A stretch of 64,000 nucleotides of DNA from positions 811,969 to 875,968 of the forward strand of contig CP011209.1 of the NCBI GenBank assembly GCA_001029635.1, in the 5' to 3' direction. Both the position numbers and the translations under genes were made by a program. How positions within the stretch are numbered: position 1 is the stretch's first letter; every line of letters starts with the position of its first letter. Under the pieces are notes generated by a model. It saw only the letters and a program-made list of their open reading frames with translations, did not search any database and was not told where the DNA came from. This document shows positions 1,525 to 60,235 of the stretch, in pieces. Source of the stretch: Candidatus Wolfebacteria bacterium GW2011_GWB1_47_1 (lineage in GTDB: Bacteria > Patescibacteriota > Minisyncoccia > UBA6257 > UBA9933).

Positions 1525-1850
1525 ATCTGCGAGCTGTAAAGAAGCGATCAGAATGAACGCAAAAAATTCCCACAGAATCCGAGGTGCGGGGACCCGTTAA
1601 AAAACGGGCGCACCCTCGGACTCGTAAGGAATTTTTAAGGCCATTCCGCTTTTTTAGTTTGCTCGCAAGCTTTTTGGTACTTTTTCTGGAAAAAGTACAG
1701 GAGGCTAGATTCAGTCCGCTTCGCAGGAAAATGGATGCTCTGCGGACACTCTGGCGCGCTACACACTCGCTCCGCTCGTTAGCAACGCCAAGTTGCGCCC
1801 TTCGCGGGAATGACACCCCAAGGGTGTCACCACTCCTCGATCATTAGCAT
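1525..1850. repeat. MITE-like interspersed repeat, family A, copy 1. It is rearranged: the 3' module is inverted and placed before the 5' module.
   Basis: It starts with tctgcgagctgtaaa, the reverse complement of the family 3' end tttacagctcgcaga. It contains the gtactttttctggaaaaagtac hairpin and the ttagcaacgccaag core shared with the copies at 11021, 15950 and 34665. Confidence 0.6.
1796..1832. repeat. REP-like palindromic element, family R
   Basis: cgcccttcgcgggaatgacacc followed by the hairpin gacaccccaagggtgtc. Same family as 24228, 37541 and 55636. Confidence 0.5.
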
Positions 1851-7378: not shown

Positions 7379-7421
7379 TGCCGATAGTCGCGGACGATTA
7401 TTGGCAATGAATTCCAGGCGA

Positions 7422-7535
7422 AGCCTACTTTCCCCACCGGCGAACCAGTTAGTATCATCGGCGCTTATCACTTTTACCTCCGAGTTCGGAATGGGATCGA
7501 GTAGATCATGATAAGCTAAATCACCAGGAAATCAT
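7422..7535 (-). rRNA. rrf: 5S ribosomal RNA
   Basis: The reverse complement contains CCGAACTCGGAGGTAAAAGTGATAAGCGCCGATGATACTAACTGG...GGAAAGTAGGCTTCGCCTGGAAT, collinear with the E. coli 5S rRNA. Confidence 0.75.
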
Positions 7536-7594
7536 TGACAACAATCGAAACGCATATACTATCACCAACCATTTTATTTTTTGGGTTACTTTGC

Positions 7595-10688
<3,094 letters not shown>

Positions 10689-21027: not shown

Positions 21028-22800
21028 TTACAATTTTCCTTCTTCCGCTATTTCCAATAGTTGCTCCGGATTTGTCGTTATGATCCGGTCCTCGAAATAG
21101 GACGGGATGATCTTGATCGCCACGTGCTTCATCCCCACAAGGAAAATCCCCTCTCCCACTCCCGCCGACAACACAAGACTCTTTTCCGCTTCACTGAGCG
21201 AAAAAGTCTTTGCAAGTGTTTCAATGCTCGATGGAGCCTGCTTCAATAGCAGCTGCAGCGACGAGTTCGATACAATCGGTACACCAAACGGCGAGTTCAT
21301 AAAGTCATCCACGTTCTGCGTAATCGTGGTCATTCCCAAGTAATATTTACGACATCGTTTTGCGAGTGCAAACAAGAACGACGCACTGTCTGCGTGCTTC
21401 ATCAAGACCCAAGCCTCATCGATGATCAGGATGCGCTTTTTCATCTCTGCGCGGATCAAATTCCAAATATAGCTCAGCATCATGTACATTGCGATTGGCC
21501 GTAACTCCTCTTCAAGATCGCGTGTCGAAAAGATCACCAACCGATTGTTGACATCCACATTCGTTGCCCGATTGGCAAACCCCGCATAAGTACCTTGGGT
21601 AAATTTGTACAGCTTCGCCGCCATACTCTTCCCTCCTTCCATGTTTTCCAAGACTGTCTGCAAATCGCTCAGTAATGGCGCTTCCAATGTCGAGAAATCC
21701 TTAATGTCACTCGTGATACCGCGCGATGCGTATGTTTCATTGATTGCTCGATCCAGCAGCGCATCTTCTTCCGGTGTGATCGCCCCCATCATCAGCTTGA
21801 GTAGGCCAACGATGTTCAAAATATGCGACTTGTACACATCGGCAGGGTCTTCTCCTTGCGGTACGACAGGGATATCCAACGGATTGATTGCCGTATCGGA
21901 TGTCAGCGATATCTTCAACAAGCTTCCTCCAACCGCATCGGCCAACTTTTGGTACTCGTTTTCCGGATCGATGACGATGACGTCAATGCCCATCATTAAC
22001 GAACGCAAAATTTCCAATTTTGTACCATACGATTTACCGGCACCGGATTTTGCGAATACCACCTGGTTCGCGTTTTCCAATGAGAATCGGTCAAAAATAA
22101 TCAACGAATTGTTATGCTGATTAATACCGTACAATACACCCTTATCTGACGTGAGGTCTTCCGATACGAATGGAAAAAATGACGAGATCGGACTCGTATT
22201 CAATGCAGTGTGGATCTGCAATTTGTCCTGCGCAATTGGTAATGTCGAAATAAATCCTTCAATATGTTGAAAGATCGACGGCTTCACATACACCATCTGA
22301 CTATCCAGCATTGACGTGATACGATCTTCCGCCCGCGCAAGCTCATCGACAGAATTCGCGTAGATCGTTATATATACCCCCACATCAAATAACTTCTCTT
22401 CCGCCTGCTGCAATTGATCGCGCAGGGCTTCGATATCCTGATATGCCGTTTCCAATGCCGGGTCTCGGACCAATCCTTTTTCATCACGCTCCGAAAGCTG
22501 CGCCTCTACCTGAGTCACTTTTCTTCGCAACTTCGATAGCGCCGCCGATGTATCGATCGGATGCACAAAAATGGAAATGTCTAGAAGATTTGGCAAATTA
22601 ATGATCACGTCAAACCACCCGGTCGACAGATATCGCGGATAGGTGAACACGAAAATCGTCTTTGCGTACGTATCTCCGAGTCTTATGTAATTAGGATTTG
22701 CTTCAAGCGCAGCAGGAGCGATGACATTCTTTACGTCGTCCCCCTCCTCATATGCCTGCGGTACGGTTATTTTTTCCATTTTTGTAGTTAGTGTTGTCAT
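21028..22800 (-). CDS. virB4: VirB4/TrbE/CagE-family type IV secretion ATPase, catalytic portion
   Basis: Walker A FAKSGAGKSYGT and Walker B LIIDEAW. 590-614 aa depending on start. Listed ORF reaches 22872 via GTG; the more plausible start is ATG 22798-22800 (MTTLTTK). A REP-like insertion lies at 22791-22875. Confidence 0.8.
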   Translation of the reverse strand: MTTLTTKMEKITVPQAYEEGDDVKNVIAPAALEANPNYIRLGDTYAKTIFVFTYPRYLSTGWFDVIINLPNLLDISIFVHPIDTSAALSKLRRKVTQVEAQLSERDEKGLVRDPALETAYQDIEALRDQLQQAEEKLFDVGVYITIYANSVDELARAEDRITSMLDSQMVYVKPSIFQHIEGFISTLPIAQDKLQIHTALNTSPISSFFPFVSEDLTSDKGVLYGINQHNNSLIIFDRFSLENANQVVFAKSGAGKSYGTKLEILRSLMMGIDVIVIDPENEYQKLADAVGGSLLKISLTSDTAINPLDIPVVPQGEDPADVYKSHILNIVGLLKLMMGAITPEEDALLDRAINETYASRGITSDIKDFSTLEAPLLSDLQTVLENMEGGKSMAAKLYKFTQGTYAGFANRATNVDVNNRLVIFSTRDLEEELRPIAMYMMLSYIWNLIRAEMKKRILIIDEAWVLMKHADSASFLFALAKRCRKYYLGMTTITQNVDDFMNSPFGVPIVSNSSLQLLLKQAPSSIETLAKTFSLSEAEKSLVLSAGVGEGIFLVGMKHVAIKIIPSYFEDRIITTNPEQLLEIAEEGKL

Positions 22801-22830
22801 TCCGTGCTTGACACGGAATCTTATTATTAG
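22791..22830. repeat. REP-like element, family R, at the VirB4 split site
   Basis: gtcattccgtgcttgacacggaatc hairpin, then caggatgacac at 22860-22870. Confidence 0.5.
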
Positions 22831-22875
22831 CCTTCCGATACGAGATTCTGAAACAAGTTCAGGATGACACACTTA

Positions 22876-23526
22876 TTATTTCTGTTTCGCGATTCCTATT
22901 CCCTTCTTCTCGGTTGCCGCAGGATTATATAAATTATAAAATAGTTCGATCAGCTCGGCATCATTTAATGTGACTGCGCGCAATCCGATTCCTGAAAGTC
23001 CCGTCGCAACGTGGTCGGCGCGCTGATTCAACTGTTCTATCTGTTCATTTAATGTCTTTTCGTCCTCCGTTTTCGTATCCTTTTTCTTTCCAAAAAATGG
23101 AATGCCGCTCATTATTCCTCCCGATGTCGGTAATCCAGCAGTGTCGTACGAAACCACAACAAAGAACGACTTGCCCATGATGTCGCTTTGTTCGACGAAT
23201 GACTTGATGAATTCGCCATATTCGGCGATCTGCTCTCGAAGCAATTCATTTTCCTCGTGTTCCTTGCGTTGTTCCAGCCCCTCCAAGTAGCCCTGAATAT
23301 TGAGTCTTCTCGAATGGACAATAATCTGCAGCGAAAAATCGAGTGAGTTTAAAAAGCTCTGGTATGCCTGTAAAATAATATTTTTATCCTCTTCGGATTT
23401 TAACGCAAAATTGATCCCACTTACCAGTAAGATCTTGCGCAATGAACCTCCCTTAAGAATCACCGTTCCCCTCTGTACCCGTTCTACATCTACAAATTGT
23501 TGCGTTGCCTGTGCTTCTACTGCCAT
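22876..23526 (-). CDS. VirB4 N-terminal-domain-like protein. It is in the same frame as virB4 and separated from it only by tandem TAA TAA.
   Basis: 216 aa, soluble. It ends AKQK with stop codon 22876-22878; the next codon 22873-22875 is also TAA; GTG at 22870-22872 is the listed virB4 ORF start. Confidence 0.5.
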   Translation of the reverse strand: MAVEAQATQQFVDVERVQRGTVILKGGSLRKILLVSGINFALKSEEDKNIILQAYQSFLNSLDFSLQIIVHSRRLNIQGYLEGLEQRKEHEENELLREQIAEYGEFIKSFVEQSDIMGKSFFVVVSYDTAGLPTSGGIMSGIPFFGKKKDTKTEDEKTLNEQIEQLNQRADHVATGLSGIGLRAVTLNDAELIELFYNLYNPAATEKKGIGIAKQK

Positions 23527-24227: not shown

Positions 24228-24300
24228 TTTGTCATTCCGGCGGAGGCCGGAATTTATTTTGATCTGGACCCCGGCCTCCGCCGGGGTGACAATTTGGTCC
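24228..24300. repeat. REP-like elements, family R, tandem inverted pair
   Basis: tgtcattccggcggaggccggaat ... ccccggcctccgccggggtgacaa. Confidence 0.6.
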
Positions 24301-24306
24301 GATTTA

Positions 24307-25464
24307 TTACTTCTTATCCTGTACCCGCTCCAGCATCCGCAGGTCGACAATGTCGTCGTTTACCGGAATCTGCGCAAGTTGTGGTTCCTTCGCTGCGGGC
24401 GCTTGCTGAGCAACTACACCAACCCGTTGCGGCGTCTTCATTATCGTAGCTTCAGGAATCTTTGGCATCGATGCCATCGGCTTGCCCTCCTCCGGCATTG
24501 CCGGTACGGGAATGGCAACGGATGAGATCACTTCATTCTGCGCGCCAAGATCAACAACCCTTGGCTCAAAGTCTACCACATGCTCCTGCTTTGTCGTAGG
24601 GACGAATATCGGCTCTATACCCTTTTGTTGTGCCTGCTCTTGCTGGCCAAACATATCCTGAGGAGCCTTTGCACTCGTATAATGGACCACTTTCACCTCC
24701 TGTTGCGGTGTTTTTGCCACCTCCTCCGACTTCTTCCCCAACCCCTCAATCATACTTATCTGAGCCGTTACGGCAGGGCCTGCGGATTTTTGCTCCTGAT
24801 TACGCTTAAATCCAAATACTCCTCCAAATGAACTCAGCGGTCTTCTCTTTTGTGTCACCGGCACAAGATCAGCTTCGGCATGTATAATTGTCGGGGCCGG
24901 CATACCGACTCCATCTTCCGCTGCCCCCGTTGGGACACTTACATTCCTACCCATATCCCCTTCGATTCGCACCTTTCTTATTTCCACAGATGCTTCCTGC
25001 TCTTCCGTTACTATCGCAGGATTTATACGATCAGTCGCGATCATTGCAGGGGTTTGCGCAGTCGCCTCCCCGCTCGTTTGCGCTGCATTCTGCTCTCGTG
25101 CGGGCCCCTCCTCCGCCATAATAGCCGGACTTTCTCCTGATACATCCGCGCGTAACTTCAAAATTAACCCTTTAACCGGATCGAATATCCGTTTATCAAT
25201 TTGAAAAATGATCGGGTCGATCGCCTTTTGATCCATCCCCGGGATGGATTGCAATTCCTTTGCTAAGTCGTTGATATGAGTAAATCCAAGCAGTATGTTA
25301 CCCATAACTATCAATACCACATCAATAATTTCTTCCGACAATCCAGCGTCCTCGCATGCCTTCCATATAATTTCCCCATTATCCACAGAGAAAAAGGCCT
25401 CCTTAAGCTCGTCAGGCACCTGTCCCCATCGGTCATAGATTTGTTCGTTGGTCACTGTTTGCAT
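24307..25464 (-). CDS. Hypothetical protein with a low-complexity C-terminal half
   Basis: 385 aa. Lies between the VirB6-like gene and the small membrane protein. Confidence 0.45.
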   Translation of the reverse strand: MQTVTNEQIYDRWGQVPDELKEAFFSVDNGEIIWKACEDAGLSEEIIDVVLIVMGNILLGFTHINDLAKELQSIPGMDQKAIDPIIFQIDKRIFDPVKGLILKLRADVSGESPAIMAEEGPAREQNAAQTSGEATAQTPAMIATDRINPAIVTEEQEASVEIRKVRIEGDMGRNVSVPTGAAEDGVGMPAPTIIHAEADLVPVTQKRRPLSSFGGVFGFKRNQEQKSAGPAVTAQISMIEGLGKKSEEVAKTPQQEVKVVHYTSAKAPQDMFGQQEQAQQKGIEPIFVPTTKQEHVVDFEPRVVDLGAQNEVISSVAIPVPAMPEEGKPMASMPKIPEATIMKTPQRVGVVAQQAPAAKEPQLAQIPVNDDIVDLRMLERVQDKK

Positions 25465-30215: not shown

Positions 30216-31757
30216 TTATTGAGCCAATACCATTCCGTAATAGAATGCCATGTTCCTCGCAAAATATTCGTTCATCAATGGACTCATAAGTCGCTCCACA
30301 GGCGCATATGTATCCGTCAGAATAATGGTATCTTCATCCGTCATGGACCGATCAATACTTCGCTTTGCGAGAAATGCCCCATTTTCCCCTCGCAGTATCT
30401 TTGTTCGCAGTTCCTGCACACCAATGGGTATTTTCGTATTCACCCCCACTAGTACGATATTCTGCGCATCATATGCATCCGCACCAAAGGCAAAAACGTA
30501 ATAGTTTTCAAATACCAACCCGAATGTCTTTTCCATACTTTTAAAAAACTCTTCCCCCGCTCCTTTTCGTACCGAACTGAAGTTTACCGCAAATACTCCC
30601 CCTTCGTTTAGACGTGCTTTTGCTTCCTCAAAAAATTCTTTCGTCGCCATATGCCATGGTACTGAAATGAACGAATTATACGCATCAGAAAAAATGAGAT
30701 CATACCGTCTGTCCGTCTGACGCAAAAAATTTCTCCCGTCTCCCACTCTTTGCCGTACCGGATAGTCATTTAATTGAAAATACTCATCGGCGACCCGCTG
30801 TACCTTCGGATCAATCTCAACGGTCGTCACGTCAGCTCCTTTATAAAAATCGGCTAATTTTTTTGATAAGTCATACGACCCCCCGCCTATCACCAACATA
30901 TCCTGCATTCTCTCATGTATCGCGCCGAAGATCGGATATATTTCCGGATATGTCCCCAGATGCTGCCCCTCAACCCCCTCAACACTATGGGAATCCGTGT
31001 CGAGCAACAACATTCTTACCCTACCTCTATCTCCCAACTCTCTATCAATAATCCTGATCTTATAATATTCACTCTCCGCGGCAAACACGACCCCTCGTAC
31101 ATCCGCAAACAAATACATCGCGTAGGTCATCATCCCCACTATTGAGAACAGTAAACCGATCAATCCTATCGTCGTTTTTTTGATCCGAGCCAATACCATT
31201 GCATTGGTCAATACAAGCAGAGCCATCAGCAGTATCGTCGTCACGCTGCCGATATATCCGATAAAATAGAACCCCGTTAAAAATGTCCCCGCAATACTTC
31301 CCAACGACCATGCCGCCGATATCTGGCCTGATCGAATTCCTGTCGCATCGATGGTTTGCAAATGCAACTTCAGTATCCCCGGATAGAGCGTCCCGAAGAA
31401 CACTGCCGGAATAAAAAACAAAAGGAACGCCAACAAGATCGTTGTCATTGACATCGACAACCCCGAAAGTGCAACAATGGGGGAAAAATATGAGAACAGC
31501 GGTATAAAAAACGTTGCAACTGATGCCGCAATAAACAGCATTGCCAATGACCGATGAGACTTCTTTCGATCGATATACACTCCTCCTGCATAGTTCCCTA
31601 CCGCCATACCAAGTAGAATCACGCCAATAACCGACGTCCACGTATAGATGGACGATCCTACATATGGCGCCATCAGACGGGTAGCAATCAATTCGATCGT
31701 CATCAGCGCGAAACCCGCTATAAACGCCGATACAATCAATATATTTAACTTCTTCAT
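30216..31757 (-). CDS. speE: Polyamine aminopropyltransferase (spermidine synthase domain) fused to an N-terminal polytopic membrane domain
   Basis: C-terminal MLVIGGGSYDL...VTTVEIDPKV...DLIFSDAYN...GGVFAVNF are SpeE/class I methyltransferase-fold motifs. The N-terminal roughly 220 aa carries more than 6 TM helices. Confidence 0.7.
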   Translation of the reverse strand: MKKLNILIVSAFIAGFALMTIELIATRLMAPYVGSSIYTWTSVIGVILLGMAVGNYAGGVYIDRKKSHRSLAMLFIAASVATFFIPLFSYFSPIVALSGLSMSMTTILLAFLLFFIPAVFFGTLYPGILKLHLQTIDATGIRSGQISAAWSLGSIAGTFLTGFYFIGYIGSVTTILLMALLVLTNAMVLARIKKTTIGLIGLLFSIVGMMTYAMYLFADVRGVVFAAESEYYKIRIIDRELGDRGRVRMLLLDTDSHSVEGVEGQHLGTYPEIYPIFGAIHERMQDMLVIGGGSYDLSKKLADFYKGADVTTVEIDPKVQRVADEYFQLNDYPVRQRVGDGRNFLRQTDRRYDLIFSDAYNSFISVPWHMATKEFFEEAKARLNEGGVFAVNFSSVRKGAGEEFFKSMEKTFGLVFENYYVFAFGADAYDAQNIVLVGVNTKIPIGVQELRTKILRGENGAFLAKRSIDRSMTDEDTIILTDTYAPVERLMSPLMNEYFARNMAFYYGMVLAQ

Positions 31758-32551
31758 GAAAAAATCACCATTAGCTTGTAAATATCTTCCATAGAAAGAT
31801 CATGCGATCGCATCTTCGCGTCAAACCCAGCACGCTGCAGTGCTTCTATGATTACTTCTTTATCCCCGTCCTTTCCCGCAAGATTATTTATGATCGTCTT
31901 ACGCGGCTGTGAGAACAACTGTCTGATAAACGCATAGTACCGGATACTATCTCCTTCAGTCGGATGCACATCCAATCGAATGGTCGCACTATCAATCTTC
32001 GGTGGCGGATTAAAATCCTTCTTCGGTACAATATCGATAATCGATGCTGTCGCCCAATACTGCACACTTGCGGCGAGCAGGTTCATCTTCGGCGACTGTG
32101 CGCAAATGCGTTCGGCAACCTCTTTCTGAATCGTCATCACGACACGCATCGGCTTATGTTCCAATTCTTCGATCACCCGCAACAGGTATCCTGTTATATA
32201 GTAGGGAATATTTCCTGCGATCATGTAAGGCTCCCCTTGTCGCTCCAACTCTTCTACTACCATCGGCAACAATTCCAACGCGTTTCCTTCGATGACTTCA
32301 AACCCGGGGTGGATTCCCGCCTCCGCGGGAATGACAAAAGAAGCGAATTTTTCCTTCAATGGTTCGATCAGTGCCTTATCGCGCTCAAGTGCCGTCACTC
32401 GCGCTCCAGCTTCTAAAAGATATTGTGTCAGCTCGCCATGACCTGGACCAACTTCAATAACAACACTGTCCCTTGTTATTTCAAGTGCATCCGATACCTT
32501 CTTTAACTTCTCCAAATTGATCAAAAAATGTTGTCCAAGCTTTTGTCCCAT
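31754..32551 (-). CDS. rsmA: 16S rRNA (adenine1518/1519-N6)-dimethyltransferase
   Basis: QHFLIN, VIEVGPGHGELT and GNIPYYIT motifs. It carries an in-frame REP-like insertion encoding IPAEAGIH at 32322-32348. Confidence 0.85.
   Translation of the reverse strand: MGQKLGQHFLINLEKLKKVSDALEITRDSVVIEVGPGHGELTQYLLEAGARVTALERDKALIEPLKEKFASFVIPAEAGIHPGFEVIEGNALELLPMVVEELERQGEPYMIAGNIPYYITGYLLRVIEELEHKPMRVVMTIQKEVAERICAQSPKMNLLAASVQYWATASIIDIVPKKDFNPPPKIDSATIRLDVHPTEGDSIRYYAFIRQLFSQPRKTIINNLAGKDGDKEVIIEALQRAGFDAKMRSHDLSMEDIYKLMVIFS
32322..32348. repeat. REP-like element, family R, embedded in-frame in the ksgA/rsmA coding sequence
   Basis: ggattcccgcctccgcgggaatgacaaaag, translated as IPAEAGIH. The same peptide appears when the intergenic copies are translated. 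Confidence 0.55.
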
Positions 32552-32591
32552 ATCAGGACAGTATACAGGTAATCAGTAATATGCGACAAGG

Positions 32592-32720
32592 AGCACCTGT
32601 ATACAACGTTTGTCCGCCGACTGGCGGACAAACGTTGTATGTTTTTTATCAGGCAATCCCAATTATCTCTGCACCTATTCGGCAATAAAAATTCGGCAGA
32701 TGCCTGCCGAATTTTTATTG
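32592..32720. promoter_or_regulatory. Two long perfect hairpins between pcrA and ksgA
   Basis: atacaacgtttgtccgcc-gact-ggcggacaaacgttgtat followed by a T-run, and ttcggcaataaaaattcggcag-atg-cctgccgaatttttattgccgaa with a 22 bp stem. Confidence 0.5.
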
Positions 32721-32763
32721 CCGAACTCCATATTCCCTTTTTCCTTTTCCTTTTTCCACCCTC

Positions 32764-35815: not shown

Positions 35816-35985
35816 TTTAAACTATAGATCCCTCGGTTCCGTTCCACTCCGCTTCACTCGAGATGACACACTCCGTCATTCCGAGCTCGGCCCTCGGCGT
35901 TACTAGCGAGTGCAGCGAGTATGCAACGTGCCAAAATACTCGAGGCACATAAGGTCCCGCGCTTCGCATGTCGAGGAATCTGCTT

Positions 35986-37540: not shown

Positions 37541-37572
37541 TAGAAAAACTGGATTCCGGCCTCCGCCGGAAT
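37541..37572. repeat. REP-like element, family R
   Basis: ctggattccggcctccgccggaatgacacagaaaac. Confidence 0.6.
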
Positions 37573-37586
37573 GACACAGAAAACTC

Positions 37587-39218: not shown

Positions 39219-39382
39219 GTTGGTTGGATTGGGGAGTAAATACGGGGATGTTTATATTCTTTCCCTCTGTTCGTAGTCTGCCGTGCCCACAGCCGAATCG
39301 CGCCGCCTACTAGCGGCTGCGATTCTATGAGGCACACAAACGCAAAACCGACATTCATTCGAATGTCGGTTTTGCGTTTGTG

Positions 39383-39454
39383 TGCCCCCAAGGAGAATCG
39401 GACTCCTCTTTACAGGATGAAAACCTGTTGTCCTGACCACTAGACGATGGGGGC
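39383..39454 (-). tRNA. tRNA-Glu (anticodon UUC)
   Basis: GCCCCCATCGTCTAGTGGTCAGGACAACAGGTTTTCATCCTGTAAAGAGGAGTCCGATTCTCCTTGGGGGCA. It has a 7 bp acceptor stem, a TTTTCAT anticodon loop and a GTCCGATTC T-loop. Confidence 0.8.
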
Positions 39455-39463
39455 GCATGTAAT

Positions 39464-39718
39464 TTACTTTATATCAAATCCTAGCTTAGTTAGCAATTCT
39501 TTTCTCGTTTGATAGCTTCTTTTTAATTGCAATTCCCGTTTTCTTGCCTCTGATTTTATGACGTAGTTTTCTGTATACTTCAAAATAAACAGGATTCTAT
39601 GTTTTATTGACTTAGTCTTTCCCGAATTATGCTCCTTTAACCTTTTATCAACATTATCGGTTATGCCAATATAATACCCAAAATCAATCGTGCTTTGCAA
39701 AATGTATAGAAAATACAT
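39464..39718 (-). CDS. GIY-YIG nuclease-domain protein (YhbQ/UPF0213-like)
   Basis: 84 aa: MYFLYILQS...GYYIGITDNVDKRLKEHNSG, which is the GIY...YIG...R...E...N catalytic motif series. No strong SD. Confidence 0.7.
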   Translation of the reverse strand: MYFLYILQSTIDFGYYIGITDNVDKRLKEHNSGKTKSIKHRILFILKYTENYVIKSEARKRELQLKRSYQTRKELLTKLGFDIK

Positions 39719-39766: not shown

Positions 39767-39803
39767 AAAAACCTGTTGTCCTAACCATTAGACGATGGGA
39801 GCT
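39767..39803 (-). pseudogene. 5' half-copy of tRNA-Glu, ending in the anticodon loop
   Basis: GCTCCCATCGTCTAATGGTTAGGACAACAGGTTTT matches positions 1-35 of the adjacent tRNA-Glu, with 3 mismatches in the first 35 nt. It then diverges into the hairpin ccgccagagagcggacccgccttcggcgggc. Confidence 0.6.
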
Positions 39804-46925: not shown

Positions 46926-47918
46926 TTAAGTAATTTTATATGCGCCGACCGCTTTTTGCAGGTTATGCGTATTGCCGTGTTTCAGTAATCCTAAATATGA
47001 GCCCATTATTTCTTCGCTATTATTTTCAACTAACCGCTTCATCATACGCTGCTTTGTTGTAGTGCGTAATATCCTATGATCGATAAAATTAATCCAACCT
47101 AAAAAATCAACGCCCGTCGCAACCGTCTTTATATATAGTTTATCCGGATGCAATTCCAACCTAAGCTTTTCATATAAGAAATTTTTAACAGCAGGGATAT
47201 ATCCCTCTAATATACTTCTATCGTCAGCGAAAAACACAAAGTCATCGCTGTATCTAATATAGTATTTATTTTTTAATTCATGCTTCACATATTGATCGAA
47301 CTCATTCATATATATGTTGACCAATAATTGCGATGTAAGATTGCCCAACGGTAGCCCTACCCCACTCCGAGCGACTGAAAAACTTCCAACCACCTCGCCA
47401 AGCAGAATGAGCAATTCCCTATCGTCAATATATTCCCTTAATATCGCCAGTAAAATACTATGGTCAATATTGGCAAAGAATTTTCTGATGTCGCACTTTA
47501 ATACCCAGCAGGTCCGCGTATTGTTCTTGCTCACGCGATATGAAAAATCCCTAAATCGATCTATCACCTTATAGGTACCCTTCCCGATCCGGCACGAATA
47601 CGAATCGGCAATAAATTTTTTGTCAAAAAACGGGCACAAAACCCGATGAATCGCATGATGCAGCAGCCGATCGCGAACGCTCGCTTTGTGGATATCTCTC
47701 GGCTTCGGATCATCTACCTTAAATGCTTCATACCCGCCATGCCGATACGCATGATTGGCAAGGTCATCATGCAATGCTATGATATTATCCATCAGGCGCA
47801 ACGAAAACTCCTGCACATCCAATTTATTTCGCTTGCCCCTCACAAATTCCTCCCATGCGCACAGTAGATTCTCGACAGAAATTATTTCTTCATAACTATG
47901 GCACAATCTGATTTTCAT
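46926..47918 (-). CDS. Reverse transcriptase of a diversity-generating retroelement
   Basis: 330 aa. RT motifs GLPLGNLTSQLLVNIYMNEFD (motif 4/B') and YIRYSDDFVFF (YxDD). GAGGAA RBS. TR, Avd and VR lie adjacent. Confidence 0.85.
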   Translation of the reverse strand: MKIRLCHSYEEIISVENLLCAWEEFVRGKRNKLDVQEFSLRLMDNIIALHDDLANHAYRHGGYEAFKVDDPKPRDIHKASVRDRLLHHAIHRVLCPFFDKKFIADSYSCRIGKGTYKVIDRFRDFSYRVSKNNTRTCWVLKCDIRKFFANIDHSILLAILREYIDDRELLILLGEVVGSFSVARSGVGLPLGNLTSQLLVNIYMNEFDQYVKHELKNKYYIRYSDDFVFFADDRSILEGYIPAVKNFLYEKLRLELHPDKLYIKTVATGVDFLGWINFIDHRILRTTTKQRMMKRLVENNSEEIMGSYLGLLKHGNTHNLQKAVGAYKIT

Positions 47919-47929
47919 AATTCCTCGTA

Positions 47930-47943
47930 CCCCCCCCCCCCCC
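47930..47943. repeat. Homopolymeric C14 tract (G14 on the minus strand) in the divergent intergenic region between RT and avd
   Basis: cccccccccccccc lies immediately upstream of the RT RBS. Confidence 0.7.
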
Positions 47944-48007
47944 GATCAATAATGTAACCATTATTGATCATACGGTACGACTATACAAGCTTTGGCAAGA
48001 GTACCTG

Positions 48008-48313
48008 TTGCAATTTCCAAAGACATCGCGATATTCCCTCGGGATAAAAATCGACAATCTTCTGCTTGAAATTGCCACATTGTTTTTTACCGCAAGCTAC
48101 GCCCCCAAAGACCCGAAGTTGATCTGCCTCATCCAAGCAAGCAAAAGGCTCGACACGCTTAAATTTCTCATAAAAGTTGCATGGGAGATAAAGTCGCTTG
48201 ACAACAATCGCTACGCCGAGCTCTCAAAAAAACTGGATGCCATCGGTAAAATGCTCGGAGGATGGCAAAAACAAGTGGAAAAACAAAACCCCGCACCAAC
48301 GGCGGGGAAATGA
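48008..48313 (+). CDS. avd: Avd-like accessory variability determinant (four-helix-bundle DGR protein). TTG start as listed.
   Basis: The C-terminal LDAIGKMLGGWQKQVEKQ resembles Bordetella phage bAvd IAEVGRILGSWIARVNRK. The central region also aligns loosely. No in-frame ATG upstream. Confidence 0.55.
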   Translation: MQFPKTSRYSLGIKIDNLLLEIATLFFTASYAPKDPKLICLIQASKRLDTLKFLIKVAWEIKSLDNNRYAELSKKLDAIGKMLGGWQKQVEKQNPAPTAGK

Positions 48314-48323
48314 AGAGATTTTC

Positions 48324-48446
48324 GCACAAACGCGAACCGACACCGCTGATTCCAACTGTCATCGAAGTAGTTCAGGTTCAGGTTGCGGTTCCTGTCATCG
48401 CAGTTGAGTACCAGCACGTTCAGGTTGCCGTTCGGGTTCTGCCATT
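48324..48446 (-). repeat. DGR template repeat (TR)
   Basis: 123 bp repeated at 48824-48946 (the VR). About 23 mismatches, every one at a position that is A on the minus (sense) strand of the TR. The minus-strand TR codes ...NCDDRNRNLNLNYFDDSWNQRCRFAFVRK and is rich in AAC codons. Confidence 0.85.
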
Positions 48447-48737
48447 ATGCATGCGATATCATCCAATCCACCACCCCTCGTCCGCCCCTGGCGGACTCGG
48501 AGTTGTATCGTATTTGTGAGCAAGACTCATCCAATACCACATACCAAGTATCTTCATTTTTTGAAGTTCCTACCCGCAATACTACGTATAGCGTTGCAGA
48601 CGGGTCTGCATATATCACTCTATCCCAAGCCGTAACCAAAGATATTCTCGACATATGGATACTGGATTCGGCAGCGGGAAGCCGTAACCGCCCGCATATT
48701 CACCTACTACCACATACAGCATAACATAAAAAATTAA

Positions 48738-48762
48738 GCCCCTCGCATAGCGAGGGGTTTTG
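48738..48762. terminator. Bidirectional terminator downstream of the DGR target gene
   Basis: aagcccctcgcatagcgaggggttt. Confidence 0.55.
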
Positions 48763-48815
48763 AAGGTTCCAAGGGTTCAAGCGCCCAACAAGGCACGAGA
48801 TCCCCAGAACCCAAG

Positions 48816-49400
48816 TTACTTGCGCACAAACGCGAACCGACACCGCTGAAACCAACTGACATCGAAGTAGTACAGGAACAGGCGGCGGTGCCTGCCATCG
48901 CAGCCGAGCACCAGCACGAACAGGAAGCCGCCCGGGCTCTGCCAAGGTTTGTGCAGGAACACGATCGGAGCATTGCGCTGTTCCTCGGGATACTGCTCAC
49001 CAAAGAATAGCGCATCTTCGTACAGAGGGCGCTCCAATCCCTGGCGCTGTGCTTCGACGAGTACTTCTTCGGACCCGGGATCATGATCGAATTCCAGGAA
49101 CACGATCTCGCGGGGTCCTTCGGGCATGGGCCGCATCGGGAAGTTCTTGCCGTTGACCATGTCATTCGTCCAGCCATAGTTGCCGGCTTCAATGACTTCG
49201 TCGGTTGTGCGGGTACCCCCGGTCATGATACGAAATGCATTCCTAGCCTGCTGGAGACACATCATAAAAGCATCGACGAACATACCGACTGCCGACACTC
49301 CGCCTTTTTCGATGACCGATTCGATATCCGCCTCGGTCACGCCTTTTTTCTCCAGTTCCGGACCAACATGCTCATCGATGAACGCTCCAAGCTTTGCCAT
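48816..49400 (-). CDS. DGR target protein; the last 41 codons are the variable repeat (48824-48946)
   Basis: 194 aa. AAGGAG RBS. C-terminus ...VLVLGCDGRHRRLFLYYFDVSWFQRCRFAFVRK, versus ...LVLNCDDRNRNLNLNYFDDSWNQRCRFAFVRK in the TR. The IMH-like invariant 27 nt cgcacaaacgcgaaccgacaccgctga is at its 3' end. Confidence 0.75.
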   Translation of the reverse strand: MAKLGAFIDEHVGPELEKKGVTEADIESVIEKGGVSAVGMFVDAFMMCLQQARNAFRIMTGGTRTTDEVIEAGNYGWTNDMVNGKNFPMRPMPEGPREIVFLEFDHDPGSEEVLVEAQRQGLERPLYEDALFFGEQYPEEQRNAPIVFLHKPWQSPGGFLFVLVLGCDGRHRRLFLYYFDVSWFQRCRFAFVRK

Positions 49401-52162: not shown

Positions 52163-52200
52163 GAATGACGGGATACTGGATTTCCGCCTTCGCGAGAATG
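52163..52200. repeat. REP-like element, family R
   Basis: actggatttccgccttcgcgagaatgacaaaacgg. Confidence 0.5.
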
Positions 52201-52226
52201 ACAAAACGGCATAATGATGATGACAT

Positions 52227-55635: not shown

Positions 55636-55670
55636 TCACTGGTAGATCCCCGCCTTCGCGGGGATGACAC
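55636..55670. repeat. REP-like element, family R
   Basis: ggtagatccccgccttcgcggggatgacactccgtg. Confidence 0.55.
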
Positions 55671-56658: not shown

Positions 56659-57090
56659 CTATATGCCGAGATCGGAAAGCTTTTCCGCTATCTCATCGGA
56701 AGAAGCCTCTGTTTTTGTTTTATATGCCTTCCACTGTTCGCTATCCCACAGTTCGATTCTGTTATACAATCCCGTAACCACAACACCTTTTGTCAGTCCT
56801 GCGTATTCGCGCAAATAGTCGGGGACCAATATTCTCCCCTGTTTATCGATTTCCACATCCATTGCGCCCGCAAGCATCAACCGCGTAAATGCACGCGAGT
56901 TTGCCTGTGTGATCGGCAACGACACTAATTTCTCCGCAAGCTTTTCCCACTCTTCGGCTGTGAACACAAATAAACATGCATCAAGACCACGCGTAATGAT
57001 CGCACTCCCCCGAAGCTTTGAGCGAAATTTCGCAGGCAATGCCATGCGTCCTTTATCGTCCAGATTGTGCGTATATTCGCCGATGAACAT
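56659..57090 (-). CDS. mraZ: Transcriptional regulator MraZ
   Basis: Starts MFIGEYTHNLDDKGRMALPAKFR with the duplicated MraZ/SpoVT-AbrB fold. 143 aa. The longer listed ORF to 57246 is an unsupported N-terminal extension. Confidence 0.8.
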   Translation of the reverse strand: MFIGEYTHNLDDKGRMALPAKFRSKLRGSAIITRGLDACLFVFTAEEWEKLAEKLVSLPITQANSRAFTRLMLAGAMDVEIDKQGRILVPDYLREYAGLTKGVVVTGLYNRIELWDSEQWKAYKTKTEASSDEIAEKLSDLGI

Positions 57091-57289
57091 ATTGATTAGA
57101 GGTTGGAGACTTGAGATTAGAGGCAAGAGAGGTTCGGATATGGCTTTTGCTTTCTCCTCCCCACTTTTCCCCATTTTACACCATTCGCAATAACAATGCA
57201 ATAAAAAAGCCGTCGATACATGATCGACGGCTTTCAAATGAGCCAATATCTATACGGTTATTTTATACCCGCAAAAAGTTATCCACTTT

Positions 57290-58927: not shown

Positions 58928-60235
58928 TTACAATTTCATTGACTTTGCCACTCCCTCCGATCCTCCCAATATTGACTCCAGCTTCTCAGCCATGCGGTTC
59001 GATGAGCGCATTGAGATGCCCAACCCAAATTTACCCTTTGATAGATTTAGTATCTGCTCGAAATTTTGCGGCGTAATGATGTTTCGCACGCGTTCTCCAA
59101 TCAACTCATCTAAACGCAGTATCTGCTGTTCATCCATCTTGCCCTTGTATTCTTCCAAGAGCCATCTGCGCACCTTTTGAATTTCTTCGGCGAGCGGAGC
59201 CTCAGGATTCTTTTCCAATACTTCGTGCACTTGTTCGATTGTATGGCGCTGACTCATAACCCCCTCTACAAGGAAGCTTATCTTCGCAGCCTTCCCCTTC
59301 CAGAGTCCAACACCGCCATTGCGGTATGCCCGGTCGAGCACTTCGCGAAATACGTCCTCATCAATATTACCCGAAAGACGCTGTAGCAAAAAGAATTCAA
59401 ACCGCTTCACTTCGCTTGCTGAGTATCCTCTTAAGAGCAGATCCGCCAAGGACTTTGCCATAATCTGATTCTCTCCCATATTTGGGTTTAGCTGCTTGTA
59501 CATCAGCTTGGATACCGCCTGGGCAACGTCACCACTTTCCTTTGGCTCTTCCACCTTCAATATCTTCCCGTCCTTCATATAGAAGATCTTACGCGCATCG
59601 CGCAAGCTCCACGCTTCATGAGTAACCATAATAACGGTCCTTCCATCCTTGGTATTCAACTCCTTCATAAACTCCAGCACCTTGTTCGCATTCTCAGAAT
59701 CGAGGTTCCCTAGCGGTTCATCACAGATAATGATTGGAGGGTTGTTAGCAAGCGCCCGGGCGATACCCACGCGCTGTTGTTGTCCTCCCGAAAGTTCTGA
59801 CGGCAACCGATTTGCGTAGGGAGCGATGTTTAACCGCTCGAGTAGCTTTTGTGCCTCCGCACGACGACGCTCAAGGGAAATACCCAAAAATGCCATCGGT
59901 AGCGCGACATTGTCCAGTACCGAAATAGATGGAATAAGGTTAAATTGTTGGAACACGATACCTACACCGATCTGACGAAAGACCGCAAGTTCACGCTTCG
60001 TGAATTTTGCAATATCGCGTCCGTTGATCAGTACCTGTCCACTCGATACACGCTCTGATTCCATGCCGCTCAATACATACAGTATAGTCGTTTTACCGCA
60101 GCCAGATGGACCAAAGAAGGCGCAATATTCGCCTTTGTTTATTTCAAGAGCAACATCCTTCAGCGCCCATACTTCGGTCGGCTTCCCCTTATCATAATAC
60201 AGATTAATACCTTCCAGTTTGATAATCGGTTCCAT
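58928..60235 (-). CDS. ABC transporter ATP-binding protein with a roughly 200 aa C-terminal extension
   Basis: Walker A GPSGCGKTT, signature LSGGQQQRVGIARAL, Walker B IIICDE. 435 aa. Confidence 0.85.
   Translation of the reverse strand: MEPIIKLEGINLYYDKGKPTEVWALKDVALEINKGEYCAFFGPSGCGKTTILYVLSGMESERVSSGQVLINGRDIAKFTKRELAVFRQIGVGIVFQQFNLIPSISVLDNVALPMAFLGISLERRRAEAQKLLERLNIAPYANRLPSELSGGQQQRVGIARALANNPPIIICDEPLGNLDSENANKVLEFMKELNTKDGRTVIMVTHEAWSLRDARKIFYMKDGKILKVEEPKESGDVAQAVSKLMYKQLNPNMGENQIMAKSLADLLLRGYSASEVKRFEFFLLQRLSGNIDEDVFREVLDRAYRNGGVGLWKGKAAKISFLVEGVMSQRHTIEQVHEVLEKNPEAPLAEEIQKVRRWLLEEYKGKMDEQQILRLDELIGERVRNIITPQNFEQILNLSKGKFGLGISMRSSNRMAEKLESILGGSEGVAKSMKL

Follow-up and report, generated by a model that had tools for sequence, protein, structure and literature searches.

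Palindromic elements of Rickettsia, according to the work of Ogata, Claverie and co-workers, reportedly stand in frame in protein-coding genes, where they occupy a surface loop and leave the fold undisturbed; those of type 1 (RPE-1) are ~100-150 nt long. Other short hairpins have been classed as repetitive extragenic palindromes (REPs), among which family 1 of the CGTC-tagged repeats (CGTC-1) combines a CGTC head, replaced by TGTC in many repeats, with an 8-bp stem that has A-T pairs at its first positions, a 4-nt loop and a CCA tail, and has been equated with dRS3 of Neisseria and RPE-6 of R. conorii (Di Nocera, De Gregorio & Rocco 2013, BMC Genomics 14:522; PMC3733652). Its hairpin was later named NTS/SRM (SRM, Ssn-related motif), together with the protein SsnA (cd10448), a GIY-YIG nuclease of single-stranded DNA (Chenal et al. 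2025, Nat Commun 16:2388; PMC11893778). Here we analyze a 64,000-nt stretch of the genome of Candidatus Wolfebacteria bacterium GW2011_GWB1_47_1 (contig CP011209.1, positions 811,969 to 875,968; hereafter the window), in which a similar hairpin recurs about ten times and one copy interrupts, in frame, the gene rsmA (ksgA).

We assign this element to CGTC-1, alias NTS/SRM, and thus to the family of Neisseria dRS3/NTS and Rickettsia RPE-6, and we read its copy in rsmA as a tolerated passenger, giving this combined reading a probability of about 0.85. CGTC repeats have been reported from Proteobacteria, Chlorobi, Bacteroidetes, Spirochaetes and Thermotogae, five phyla that include no member of the candidate phyla radiation (CPR), and were described as having 'no dedicated transposase'; the peptides of intragenic copies listed in a supplementary table are VIPAKAGI, SFPRKRES, DSRLRGND, CHSRESGNP, WIPAFTGMT and VMPAEAGI (PMC3733652). 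What is new here is modest, namely the occurrence of the family in Patescibacteria and a pair of RsmA loops that has been colonised repeatedly. Neither the element nor the mechanism is of a new kind: the family was described in 2013 and its nuclease in 2025, and copies translated in frame into these peptides are already documented in Rickettsia.

The hairpin family and its copy in rsmA

A previous sequence-only reading of the window had proposed a dispersed family of REP-like hairpins, which is borne out by an excess over shuffled sequence. The 26-mer on which that proposal was built matches three sites of the window with up to 3 mismatches, against 0 in 100 dinucleotide-preserving shuffles, and a scan for structure, which required a GTCA head, an 8-bp stem and a loop of 4-6 nt, recovers a perfect 8-bp stem in 6 copies, against 0 in 30 shuffles. 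Fuzzy and structure-aware scans together yield ~10 members, or about one per 6 kb (Table 1), and among relatives 1-4 copies are found per 5-20 kb of syntenic contig. On its head-bearing strand the consensus unit reads (T)GTC-ATTCCSGC-GRAG-GCSGGAAT-CCA(G) over 28 nt, so that the stem (ATTCCSGC/GCSGGAAT) has 8 bp, where 7 bp had been proposed, and encloses a 4-nt loop. Each of the family sites reported previously exists, but 6-15 nt away from where it had been placed, and the copy at 22841 had been missed.

The copies of the window share their anatomy and vary in ways that preserve pairing. TGTC precedes the stem in every one of them, and the form ATTCCSGC-GRAG-GCSGGAAT is found at 32309-36, 37549-76 and 24230-57. 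Four of the eight copies with a 4-nt loop (24264-91, 32309-36, 37549-76 and 52176-203) have the tail CCA, the others CTA or TTA, while the 5-nt loops of the pair at 22795-22869 resemble those of the CGTC-2 family. The stem variants ACCCCGGC and ATCCCCGC remain paired through compensatory changes, which in the copy at 24264-24291 turn ATTCC../..GGAAT into ACCCC../..GGGGT (TT>CC with AA>GG), and at stem position 6 the rsmA copy has C-G in place of G-C.

The same constraints hold far beyond the window. We scanned one genome per GTDB species with the query GTCATTCCNGCNNNNGCNGGAATC and analyzed at least 171 copies from more than 100 species among the matches listed. The unconstrained stem pair is complementary in 169 of the 171 copies listed (C-G 126, G-C 20, T-A 19, A-T 4), GTC is preceded by C in 115 and by T in 47, and the tail CA follows GGAATC in 131; 16 of these copies lie within long open reading frames (ORFs), some of which may be spurious. 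The matches listed come from more than 15 phyla and include Bacteroidota, Chloroflexota, Nitrospirota, Planctomycetota, Zixibacteria, Latescibacterota, Vampirovibrionales, Saccharibacteria, Paceibacteria, Parcubacteria and all proteobacterial classes, and inverted pairs 35-100 nt apart are frequent among them, nearly all with their heads outward.

The rsmA copy lies in frame within the coding sequence, as had been stated, although the span given for it (32322-32348) covers only half of the true one. A codon-level comparison with the empty allele of a related contig (L001) gives a difference of exactly 30 nt, and the protein has therefore 10 residues more than its nearest orthologues instead of the ~8 that had been suggested. 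The motifs conserved in RsmA (GPGHGELT, ALERD, GNALE and GNIPYYIT) are intact. The insert had been assigned to the loop between motif I and the following helix; its actual site is further on, between the helix that follows motif II/β2 (ALERD...) and strand β3 (FEVIEGN). An alternative placement by HMMER alignment to B. subtilis KsgA was not used, as it pairs the 'IH' of the insert with a native 'VIHQ'.

An AlphaFold2 model of the window RsmA (pLDDT 92, pTM 0.88, with pLDDT ~76 over the insert) predicts a small β-hairpin formed by residues 73-76 and 79-82, between helix 59-68 and strand 84-88. The modelled fold is that of KsgA (TM-score 0.84 to B. subtilis KsgA), structures of which are also matched by sequence. 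The insert is modelled on one of its loops and the rest of the fold is canonical, in line with the surface-loop position that the sequence-only reading had anticipated. In class I methyltransferases the loops entering β3 and β4 lie opposite the edge that binds S-adenosylmethionine (SAM). The notion that the hairpin can be tolerated in a protein, which is also central to our reading, gains support from the in-frame insert, the empty orthologues described below and the predicted integrity of the fold. The translations of intergenic copies adduced in its favour (VTPAEAGVQ and VIPAEAGIY) are correct, and five of the six reading frames through the hairpin unit are open.

Table 1. Hairpin copies of the window, the rsmA insert and associated genes, in window coordinates.
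Feature	Position	Strand	Description
Half-decayed copy	1788-1815	-	head and 5′ arm intact; 12 nt past leuS stop; adjoins a second hairpin (GACACCC..GGGTGTC)
VirB4 P-loop gene, ~584 aa	real ATG 22779	-	hairpin dimer 22795-22869 in the spacer to the TraC-like gene
5-nt-loop variant	22795-22823	+	ATTCCGTG-CTTGA-CACGGAAT; TraC-like/VirB4 P-loop spacer
5-nt-loop variant	22841-22869	-	ATCCTGAA-CTTGT-TTCAGAAT; 1 stem mismatch; TraC-like/VirB4 P-loop spacer
TraC-like gene, 216 aa	22876..23526	-	stop 22876
4-nt-loop copy	24230-24257	+	first arm of tail-to-tail dimer 24230-24291
Copy	24264-24291	-	stem ACCCCGGC/GCCGGGGT; second arm of tail-to-tail dimer
rsmA/ksgA, insert host	31754..32551	-	265 aa; Pfam RrnaAD E = 5e-42
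30-nt in-frame insert	32309..32338	-	TTT GTC ATT CCC GCG GAG GCG GGA ATC CAC = FVIPAEAGIH, residues 72-81
rsmA copy	32309-32336	-	head TGTC, stem ATTCCCGC/GCGGGAAT, loop GGAG, tail CCA
Degenerate composite	35825-35982	-	two GTCAT-headed hairpins (CAGATTCCTCGAC...GCTCGGAATGAC, then TGTCATCTCGAG...CCGAGGGATCTA); directly 3′ of comM
Perfect copy	37549-37576	-	TGTC-ATTCCGGC-GGAG-GCCGGAAT-CCAG; 11 nt past dksA-type zinc-finger stop, upstream of comM; then TTTTT
Decaying copy	52176-52203	-	2 stem mismatches; 24 nt past Mur ligase gene stop
Copy	55642-55669	-	TGTC-ATCCCCGC-GAAG-GCGGGGAT-CTA; 34 nt past rsmH (mraW) stop

The RsmA loop and orthologous spacers in relatives

A search for RsmA homologues returned matches in Patescibacteria/Parcubacteria, including Candidatus Wolfebacteria, Jorgensenbacteria and Paceibacteria; the 25 closest were aligned with outgroups (alignment A1), and the DNA of eight alleles was compared codon by codon. 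That the insert might be specific to a lineage had been raised before, and the alignment agrees: it is absent from the closest orthologues, P0003, P0004, P0005 and P0007 (255 aa; 74-75% identity by BLASTP, 77-78% in alignment A1), in which a four-residue loop (K-K-F-G-D-E-N-F-E-V) has the canonical length seen in B. subtilis KsgA and the outgroups. The same loop contains a hairpin with an expanded loop in P0002, a half copy and a full VIPAKAGIQ copy in P0013, a decayed copy (YGIPTKDGIQ) in P0021, two copies of opposite orientation (VIPVKTGI...DSRLRGND) in P0024 and an apparent decayed half copy in P0015. P0006, P0010 and P0017 have there, again in frame, four tandem 8-mers [ATG]ACGAGCT (32 nt; ANELTSLRADEL), located in P0006 at 298-330 of contig L006. 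One RsmA loop thus takes at least five different states among related lineages.

A second RsmA loop, before strand β4 (YMIAGN), holds two further kinds of insert in relatives (L004 4880-5015, L008 and L009 4240-4370). P0014, P0021, P0024, P0025 and P0026 share an in-frame element of 117 nt that is bounded by terminal inverted repeats of 16 nt, AGGCGCC(T/A)CTGTTTGA, and conserved over ~39 residues; P0015 has two GTCAT-headed hairpins, likewise in frame, as a pair of 115 nt.

In a single-gene neighbor-joining (NJ) tree built on gap-free columns, with bootstraps, filled alleles are scattered among empty ones, and the distance of the window RsmA to empty alleles (P0005, P0004) equals that to a filled one (P0002). 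Because well-supported sister pairs (P0006/P0009, 98% bootstrap; P0017/P0023, 97%) differ in the 8-mer insert, the loop must gain or lose inserts over short times.

The NJ tree leaves undecided whether the loop was hit several times or once, long ago, with later losses and conversion. Under the second history a single insertion in the ancestor of the clade was followed by repeated deletion or by overwriting through gene conversion, and the window would retain an old insert instead of showing a fresh hop. Palindromes are prone to deletion, and it fits this history that in all filled alleles the insert follows the same pair of loop residues ([AS]-S) and is read in one shared frame. In the basal clade P0024/P0014/P0021 (76% bootstrap, with 93% for P0014/P0021) the loop likewise contains a hairpin, a decayed hairpin or a remnant, P0015 has its apparent decayed half copy, and the GGAG loop of the window rsmA copy is the variant that the genome's own intergenic copies share, as concerted evolution would lead one to expect. 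On the NJ topology, however, the ancestral insertion requires at least 10 independent clean losses, against 3-4 gains; empty alleles retain the canonical 4-residue loop of B. subtilis and the outgroups; and the two sister pairs named above differ in 8-mer state at the same site. We therefore hold a single old insertion to be possible but doubtful.

Turnover is also suggested by the spacers between genes. The spacer between a 385-aa gene (stop at 24307) and a PrgI-family gene is occupied in the window by the dimer at 24230-24291, which folds as one long RNA hairpin (-46 kcal/mol, z = -8), in L001 by one palindromic copy, in L004 by a copy with a 70-nt insertion in its loop, and in L008 by none; the dksA-to-comM spacer has one copy in the window, none in L001 and a dimer in L004. 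Judged from these contigs, presence and absence at orthologous intergenic spacers fit mobility or turnover.

The Ssn nuclease and other explanations for the hairpins

SsnA binds only the forward single strand of its hairpin and cuts a few nucleotides upstream, is inactive as Y6A, Y17A or E64A mutant, and depends critically both on the GTC that precedes the palindrome and on the C that follows (PMC11893778). The rsmA copy, TGTCATTCCCGCGGAGGCGGGAATCCAC, keeps both determinants and matches the NTS consensus, CGTCATTCCCGCGMAVGCGGGAATCYRG, at 25 of 28 positions. The 94-aa Ssn gene is itself flanked by inverted NTS/SRM copies; an SRM lies near 71% of Ssn homologues and on both sides of 42%, only 2% of NTS are intragenic, and Patescibacteria are unmentioned (PMC11893778).

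Ssn homologues are found among the relatives of the window organism and beyond. A 93-94-aa GIY-YIG gene stands exactly between inverted hairpins in Methylotenera (L063) and in a Wolfebacteria-like contig (L009), 3.5 kb from the rsmA of the latter. Y6, Y17 and E64 are invariant in an alignment of the L063 protein with the 93-aa Wolfebacteria-relative homologue, which is 51% identical to it; an ORF from a dRS3 cluster of Neisseria gonorrhoeae in turn shares 58% identity with the L063 protein. In L210/L009 the Wolfebacteria homologue (P0241, annotated in Ca. Wolfebacteria RIFOXYD12_FULL_48_21) stands directly 3′ of comM between related GTCAT-headed hairpins, and the spacer downstream of comM in the window aligns with the outer hairpins of L210/L009, without the gene and one hairpin copy. 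On sequence grounds this site fits either a deletion between two direct hairpin copies or a site that was never filled.

We extended the comparison to 72 Ssn homologues with enough flanking sequence, picked by protein patterns only from Joint Genome Institute (JGI) metagenomes. A hairpin lies within 150 nt of the GIY-YIG gene upstream in 58 of the 72, downstream in 55 and on both sides in 47, against a background of 59 hairpins in 144 kb. In 40 units with a hairpin on both sides (median 376 nt, from 32 distinct genomic contexts) a distance of ~18 nt separates the stem ends from both the ATG and the stop codon, heads point outward, and the two sides have the same stem variant in 24. Azospirillum lipoferum, S. 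meliloti (9-bp stem, 5-nt loop) and N. aromaticivorans have a GIY-YIG gene flanked by the host's own hairpin variant, and hairpin-flanked ssnA-type genes occur also in Moranbacteria, Bacteroidota, Planctomycetes and Nitrospirota. N. gonorrhoeae shows a different arrangement, with the gene in a dRS3 cluster and the copy directly past its stop pointing its head toward the gene. These counts are an independent replication of published work to which CPR examples are added; the idea that the GIY-YIG gene is a newly found 'missing' enzyme of CGTC REPs was dropped, the link having been published by Chenal et al. (2025). As to the places where such genes are found, a hairpin-flanked ssnA-type gene separates atpF from atpH in Moranbacteria (L217 1451-1816) and another sufB from sufC in A. 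lipoferum pAZO_p3 (L228).

Several observations weigh against our assignment or its parts. The published SRM pattern, HGTCWYN(0-2)YYVSBRHN(0-5)WNVSBRGN(0-2)RNCYNB, fits only the copy at 55642-55669 (1 match, against 0.08 in shuffles); copies with a GGAG loop fail it because G stands where it requires H, and as it recovered a single window copy we did not use it for counting. The window differs from Ssn systems in that most of its copies fall just outside this hand-made pattern and in having no ssnA-type (cd10448) gene within its 64 kb, its sole GIY-YIG ORF (39464..39718) belonging to another subfamily and having no flanking hairpins. Both inverted pairs of the window (24230-24291 and 22795-22869) have their heads outward and are, in our own reading, tail-to-tail, whereas the CGTC description has dimers predominantly head-to-head (PMC3733652), under a convention that may differ from ours. 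A single-gene NJ tree, moreover, cannot settle gain against loss, bootstrap values being 34-62% at the nodes that part hairpin-bearing P0002 from empty P0004 and P0005. Finally, both a translated insert and an active enzyme are presumed, and every route of multiplication suggested for the hairpin family, in whichever organism, is putative.

The hairpins might instead be functional RNA elements of the host, selected for their position, that serve as terminators, as stabilisers of mRNA 3′ ends or, in rsmA, as a regulatory or pausing hairpin of the mRNA. Seven of the ~10 window copies do lie within 40 nt 3′ of a stop codon, mostly in sense orientation, and REPs at such sites have been proposed as RNA elements (PMC3733652); the copy at 37549-37576, which is followed by TTTTT, was found by a terminator scan. 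It is, however, the only one of the ~10 with a U-tract in sense orientation, and we rejected intrinsic termination for this reason; the terminator-like hairpins of the genome are of other sequence types, and orthologous spacers in relatives lack copies. The local fold around the 8-bp hairpin of the rsmA copy is about as stable as those of shuffled sequences (z = -0.08), a search of the window with Rfam at gathering thresholds returned rRNA and tRNA only, with no family at the hairpin sites, and SsnA shows no interaction with the RNA form of the hairpin (PMC11893778). A host RNA function thus seems unlikely.

Classical GTAG-type REPs or REPINs moved by a RAYT, an IS200/IS605-like Y1 transposase, resemble the window family in a general way, as short GC-rich palindromes with inverted dimers and sites 3′ of genes. 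The head is (C/T)GTC and not GTAG, no transposase, RAYT, IS110 or Y1_Tnp was found among the ~50 window ORFs scanned against Pfam, no transposase has been linked to CGTC repeats (PMC3733652), and the gene linked to the hairpins encodes a GIY-YIG nuclease, all of which makes this origin very improbable. A chance palindrome or an assembly artefact in rsmA, for which nothing speaks except a probable origin of the window from a metagenome assembly, is close to negligible, given that 0 of 100 shuffles contain any match, that the identical protein, insert included, is on record from 2 independent contigs (P0001) and that related alleles from other samples have hairpins at the same site.

Neighbouring features, proposed history and known systems

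The sequence-only reading had also attributed to a hairpin the splitting of virB4. The two pieces, though, are separate genes in four syntenic contigs (L001, L004, L008 and the window), and the type IV secretion-like cluster to which they belong (window 21028-23526, with PrgI, TraC-like and P-loop TraG/VirB4 genes) has a two-gene VirB4/TraC arrangement throughout the clade. Between the TraC-like and P-loop genes the window has its hairpin dimer, L001 a long hairpin pair, L008 a decayed copy and L004 a GIY-YIG gene. As far as these contigs tell, the split is a feature of the clade, and the hairpin of the window an occupant of the spacer, not a demonstrated cause.

Further features were noted along the window. 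The uvrD-rsmA spacer (32552-32763) has hairpins of other types, among them the A/T-flanked TTCGGCAGGCATCTGCCGAA, which looks like a bidirectional terminator, and one with a 20-bp stem around TGTCCGCCAGTCGGCGGACA; its TTCGGCA-rich repeats recur in L001 and L004. The GIY-YIG ORF of the window (84 aa, minus strand) has the intact tRNA-Glu(TTC) gene (39382-39454) on one side and on the other a 36-nt stretch (39767-39802) that duplicates the 5′ half of tRNA-Glu, and the segment 39382-39830 looks, by its sequence, as if an insertion had occurred next to a tRNA-Glu gene or within it. A diversity-generating retroelement occupies 46926-49400 on the minus strand. Its reverse transcriptase gene (46926..47918) matches Pfam RVT_1, its template repeat spans 48313-48444, and its variable repeat, at 48813-48944, is situated where ORF 48816..49400 has its 3′ end; the two repeats, of 132 nt, are 82% identical, and of their 24 mismatches 22 are at adenines of the template. 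23S and 5S rRNA genes are located at 7413-10666, and as Rfam finds no 16S rRNA gene in the 64 kb the rRNA operon appears unlinked. A MacB-type ABC ATPase ORF (58928-60235, minus strand, 435 aa) extends ~215 residues past ABC_tran without a Pfam match, and the start of the MraZ ORF (56659-57246, minus strand, 195 aa from a TTG) is probably over-extended.

In the history that we propose for rsmA, one hairpin copy would have been fixed as a 30-nt insert in the loop before β3, which by the topology of class I methyltransferases is on the side of the Rossmann fold that faces away from the SAM pocket. Because five of six frames are open and the site lies away from this pocket, the insert would be translated (as VIPAEAGIH) and tolerated as a passenger. 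Hairpins may multiply with the help of the Ssn nuclease or via an IS200-like single-strand route; we know of no strand-transfer activity of Ssn. Window genes are nearly all on the minus strand, GC skew is negative throughout, and the head-bearing forward strand is the minus strand for most copies, that of rsmA included. By GC skew the minus strand would be leading-strand sequence and hence lagging-strand template, though numbers are small and confounded with gene orientation; a bias of the forward strand toward the lagging-strand template, subject to the same confounding, would suit a process that depends on single strands. We advance only tentatively, and at less than even odds, that Ssn/SRM is currently active in Patescibacteria and that the RsmA loops before β3 and β4 are true insertion hot spots, hit independently several times.

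Should this be true, pairs of filled and empty alleles in genomes of ~1 Mb with very few nucleases would be a good place to study how this very widespread hairpin family multiplies, a question that dates from 2013 and to which 2025 added only hypotheses. If, moreover, Ssn were able to cut the sense strand of an essential gene, the uptake or recombination of this gene could be altered in organisms that depend on imported DNA. The assignment would extend to the CPR a repeat family of Neisseria (dRS3/NTS), Rickettsia (RPE-6) and alphaproteobacteria, and offers a compact example of hairpins that add peptide loops to essential enzymes. For annotation, it would explain recurrent spurious peptides (VIPAKAGIQ, DSRLRGND, WIPAFAGMT) and variation in the length of CPR proteins.

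Compared with described systems, the window family shares with REP/REPIN-RAYT (GTAG) systems a population of short hairpins, a low-copy nuclease gene flanked by inverted copies and recognition of a single-stranded hairpin, and differs from them in its head tetranucleotide and in a GIY-YIG nuclease that takes the place of the HUH Y1 transposase. The rsmA insert resembles Rickettsia palindromic elements as an in-frame palindrome in a housekeeping gene, absent from orthologues, at a loop site and with a fold that is predicted to be kept; unlike RPE-1 it has 30 nt, belongs to a different phylum and is one of several different inserts found in a single loop across close relatives. With NTS the rsmA copy has in common its match to the consensus, both critical determinants and an Ssn homologue in the genomes of relatives. 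The closest likeness is to CGTC-1, from which the window family is set apart by its Patescibacteria/CPR host and by its preference for a GGAG loop and a TGTC head, and with which it shares the YGTC head, the 8-bp stem beginning with A-T, the 4-nt loop, the CCA tail, sites downstream of ORFs, inverted dimers and in-frame intragenic copies, those of CGTC-1 including VIPAKAGI, DSRLRGND, SFPRKRES and WIPAFAGMT.

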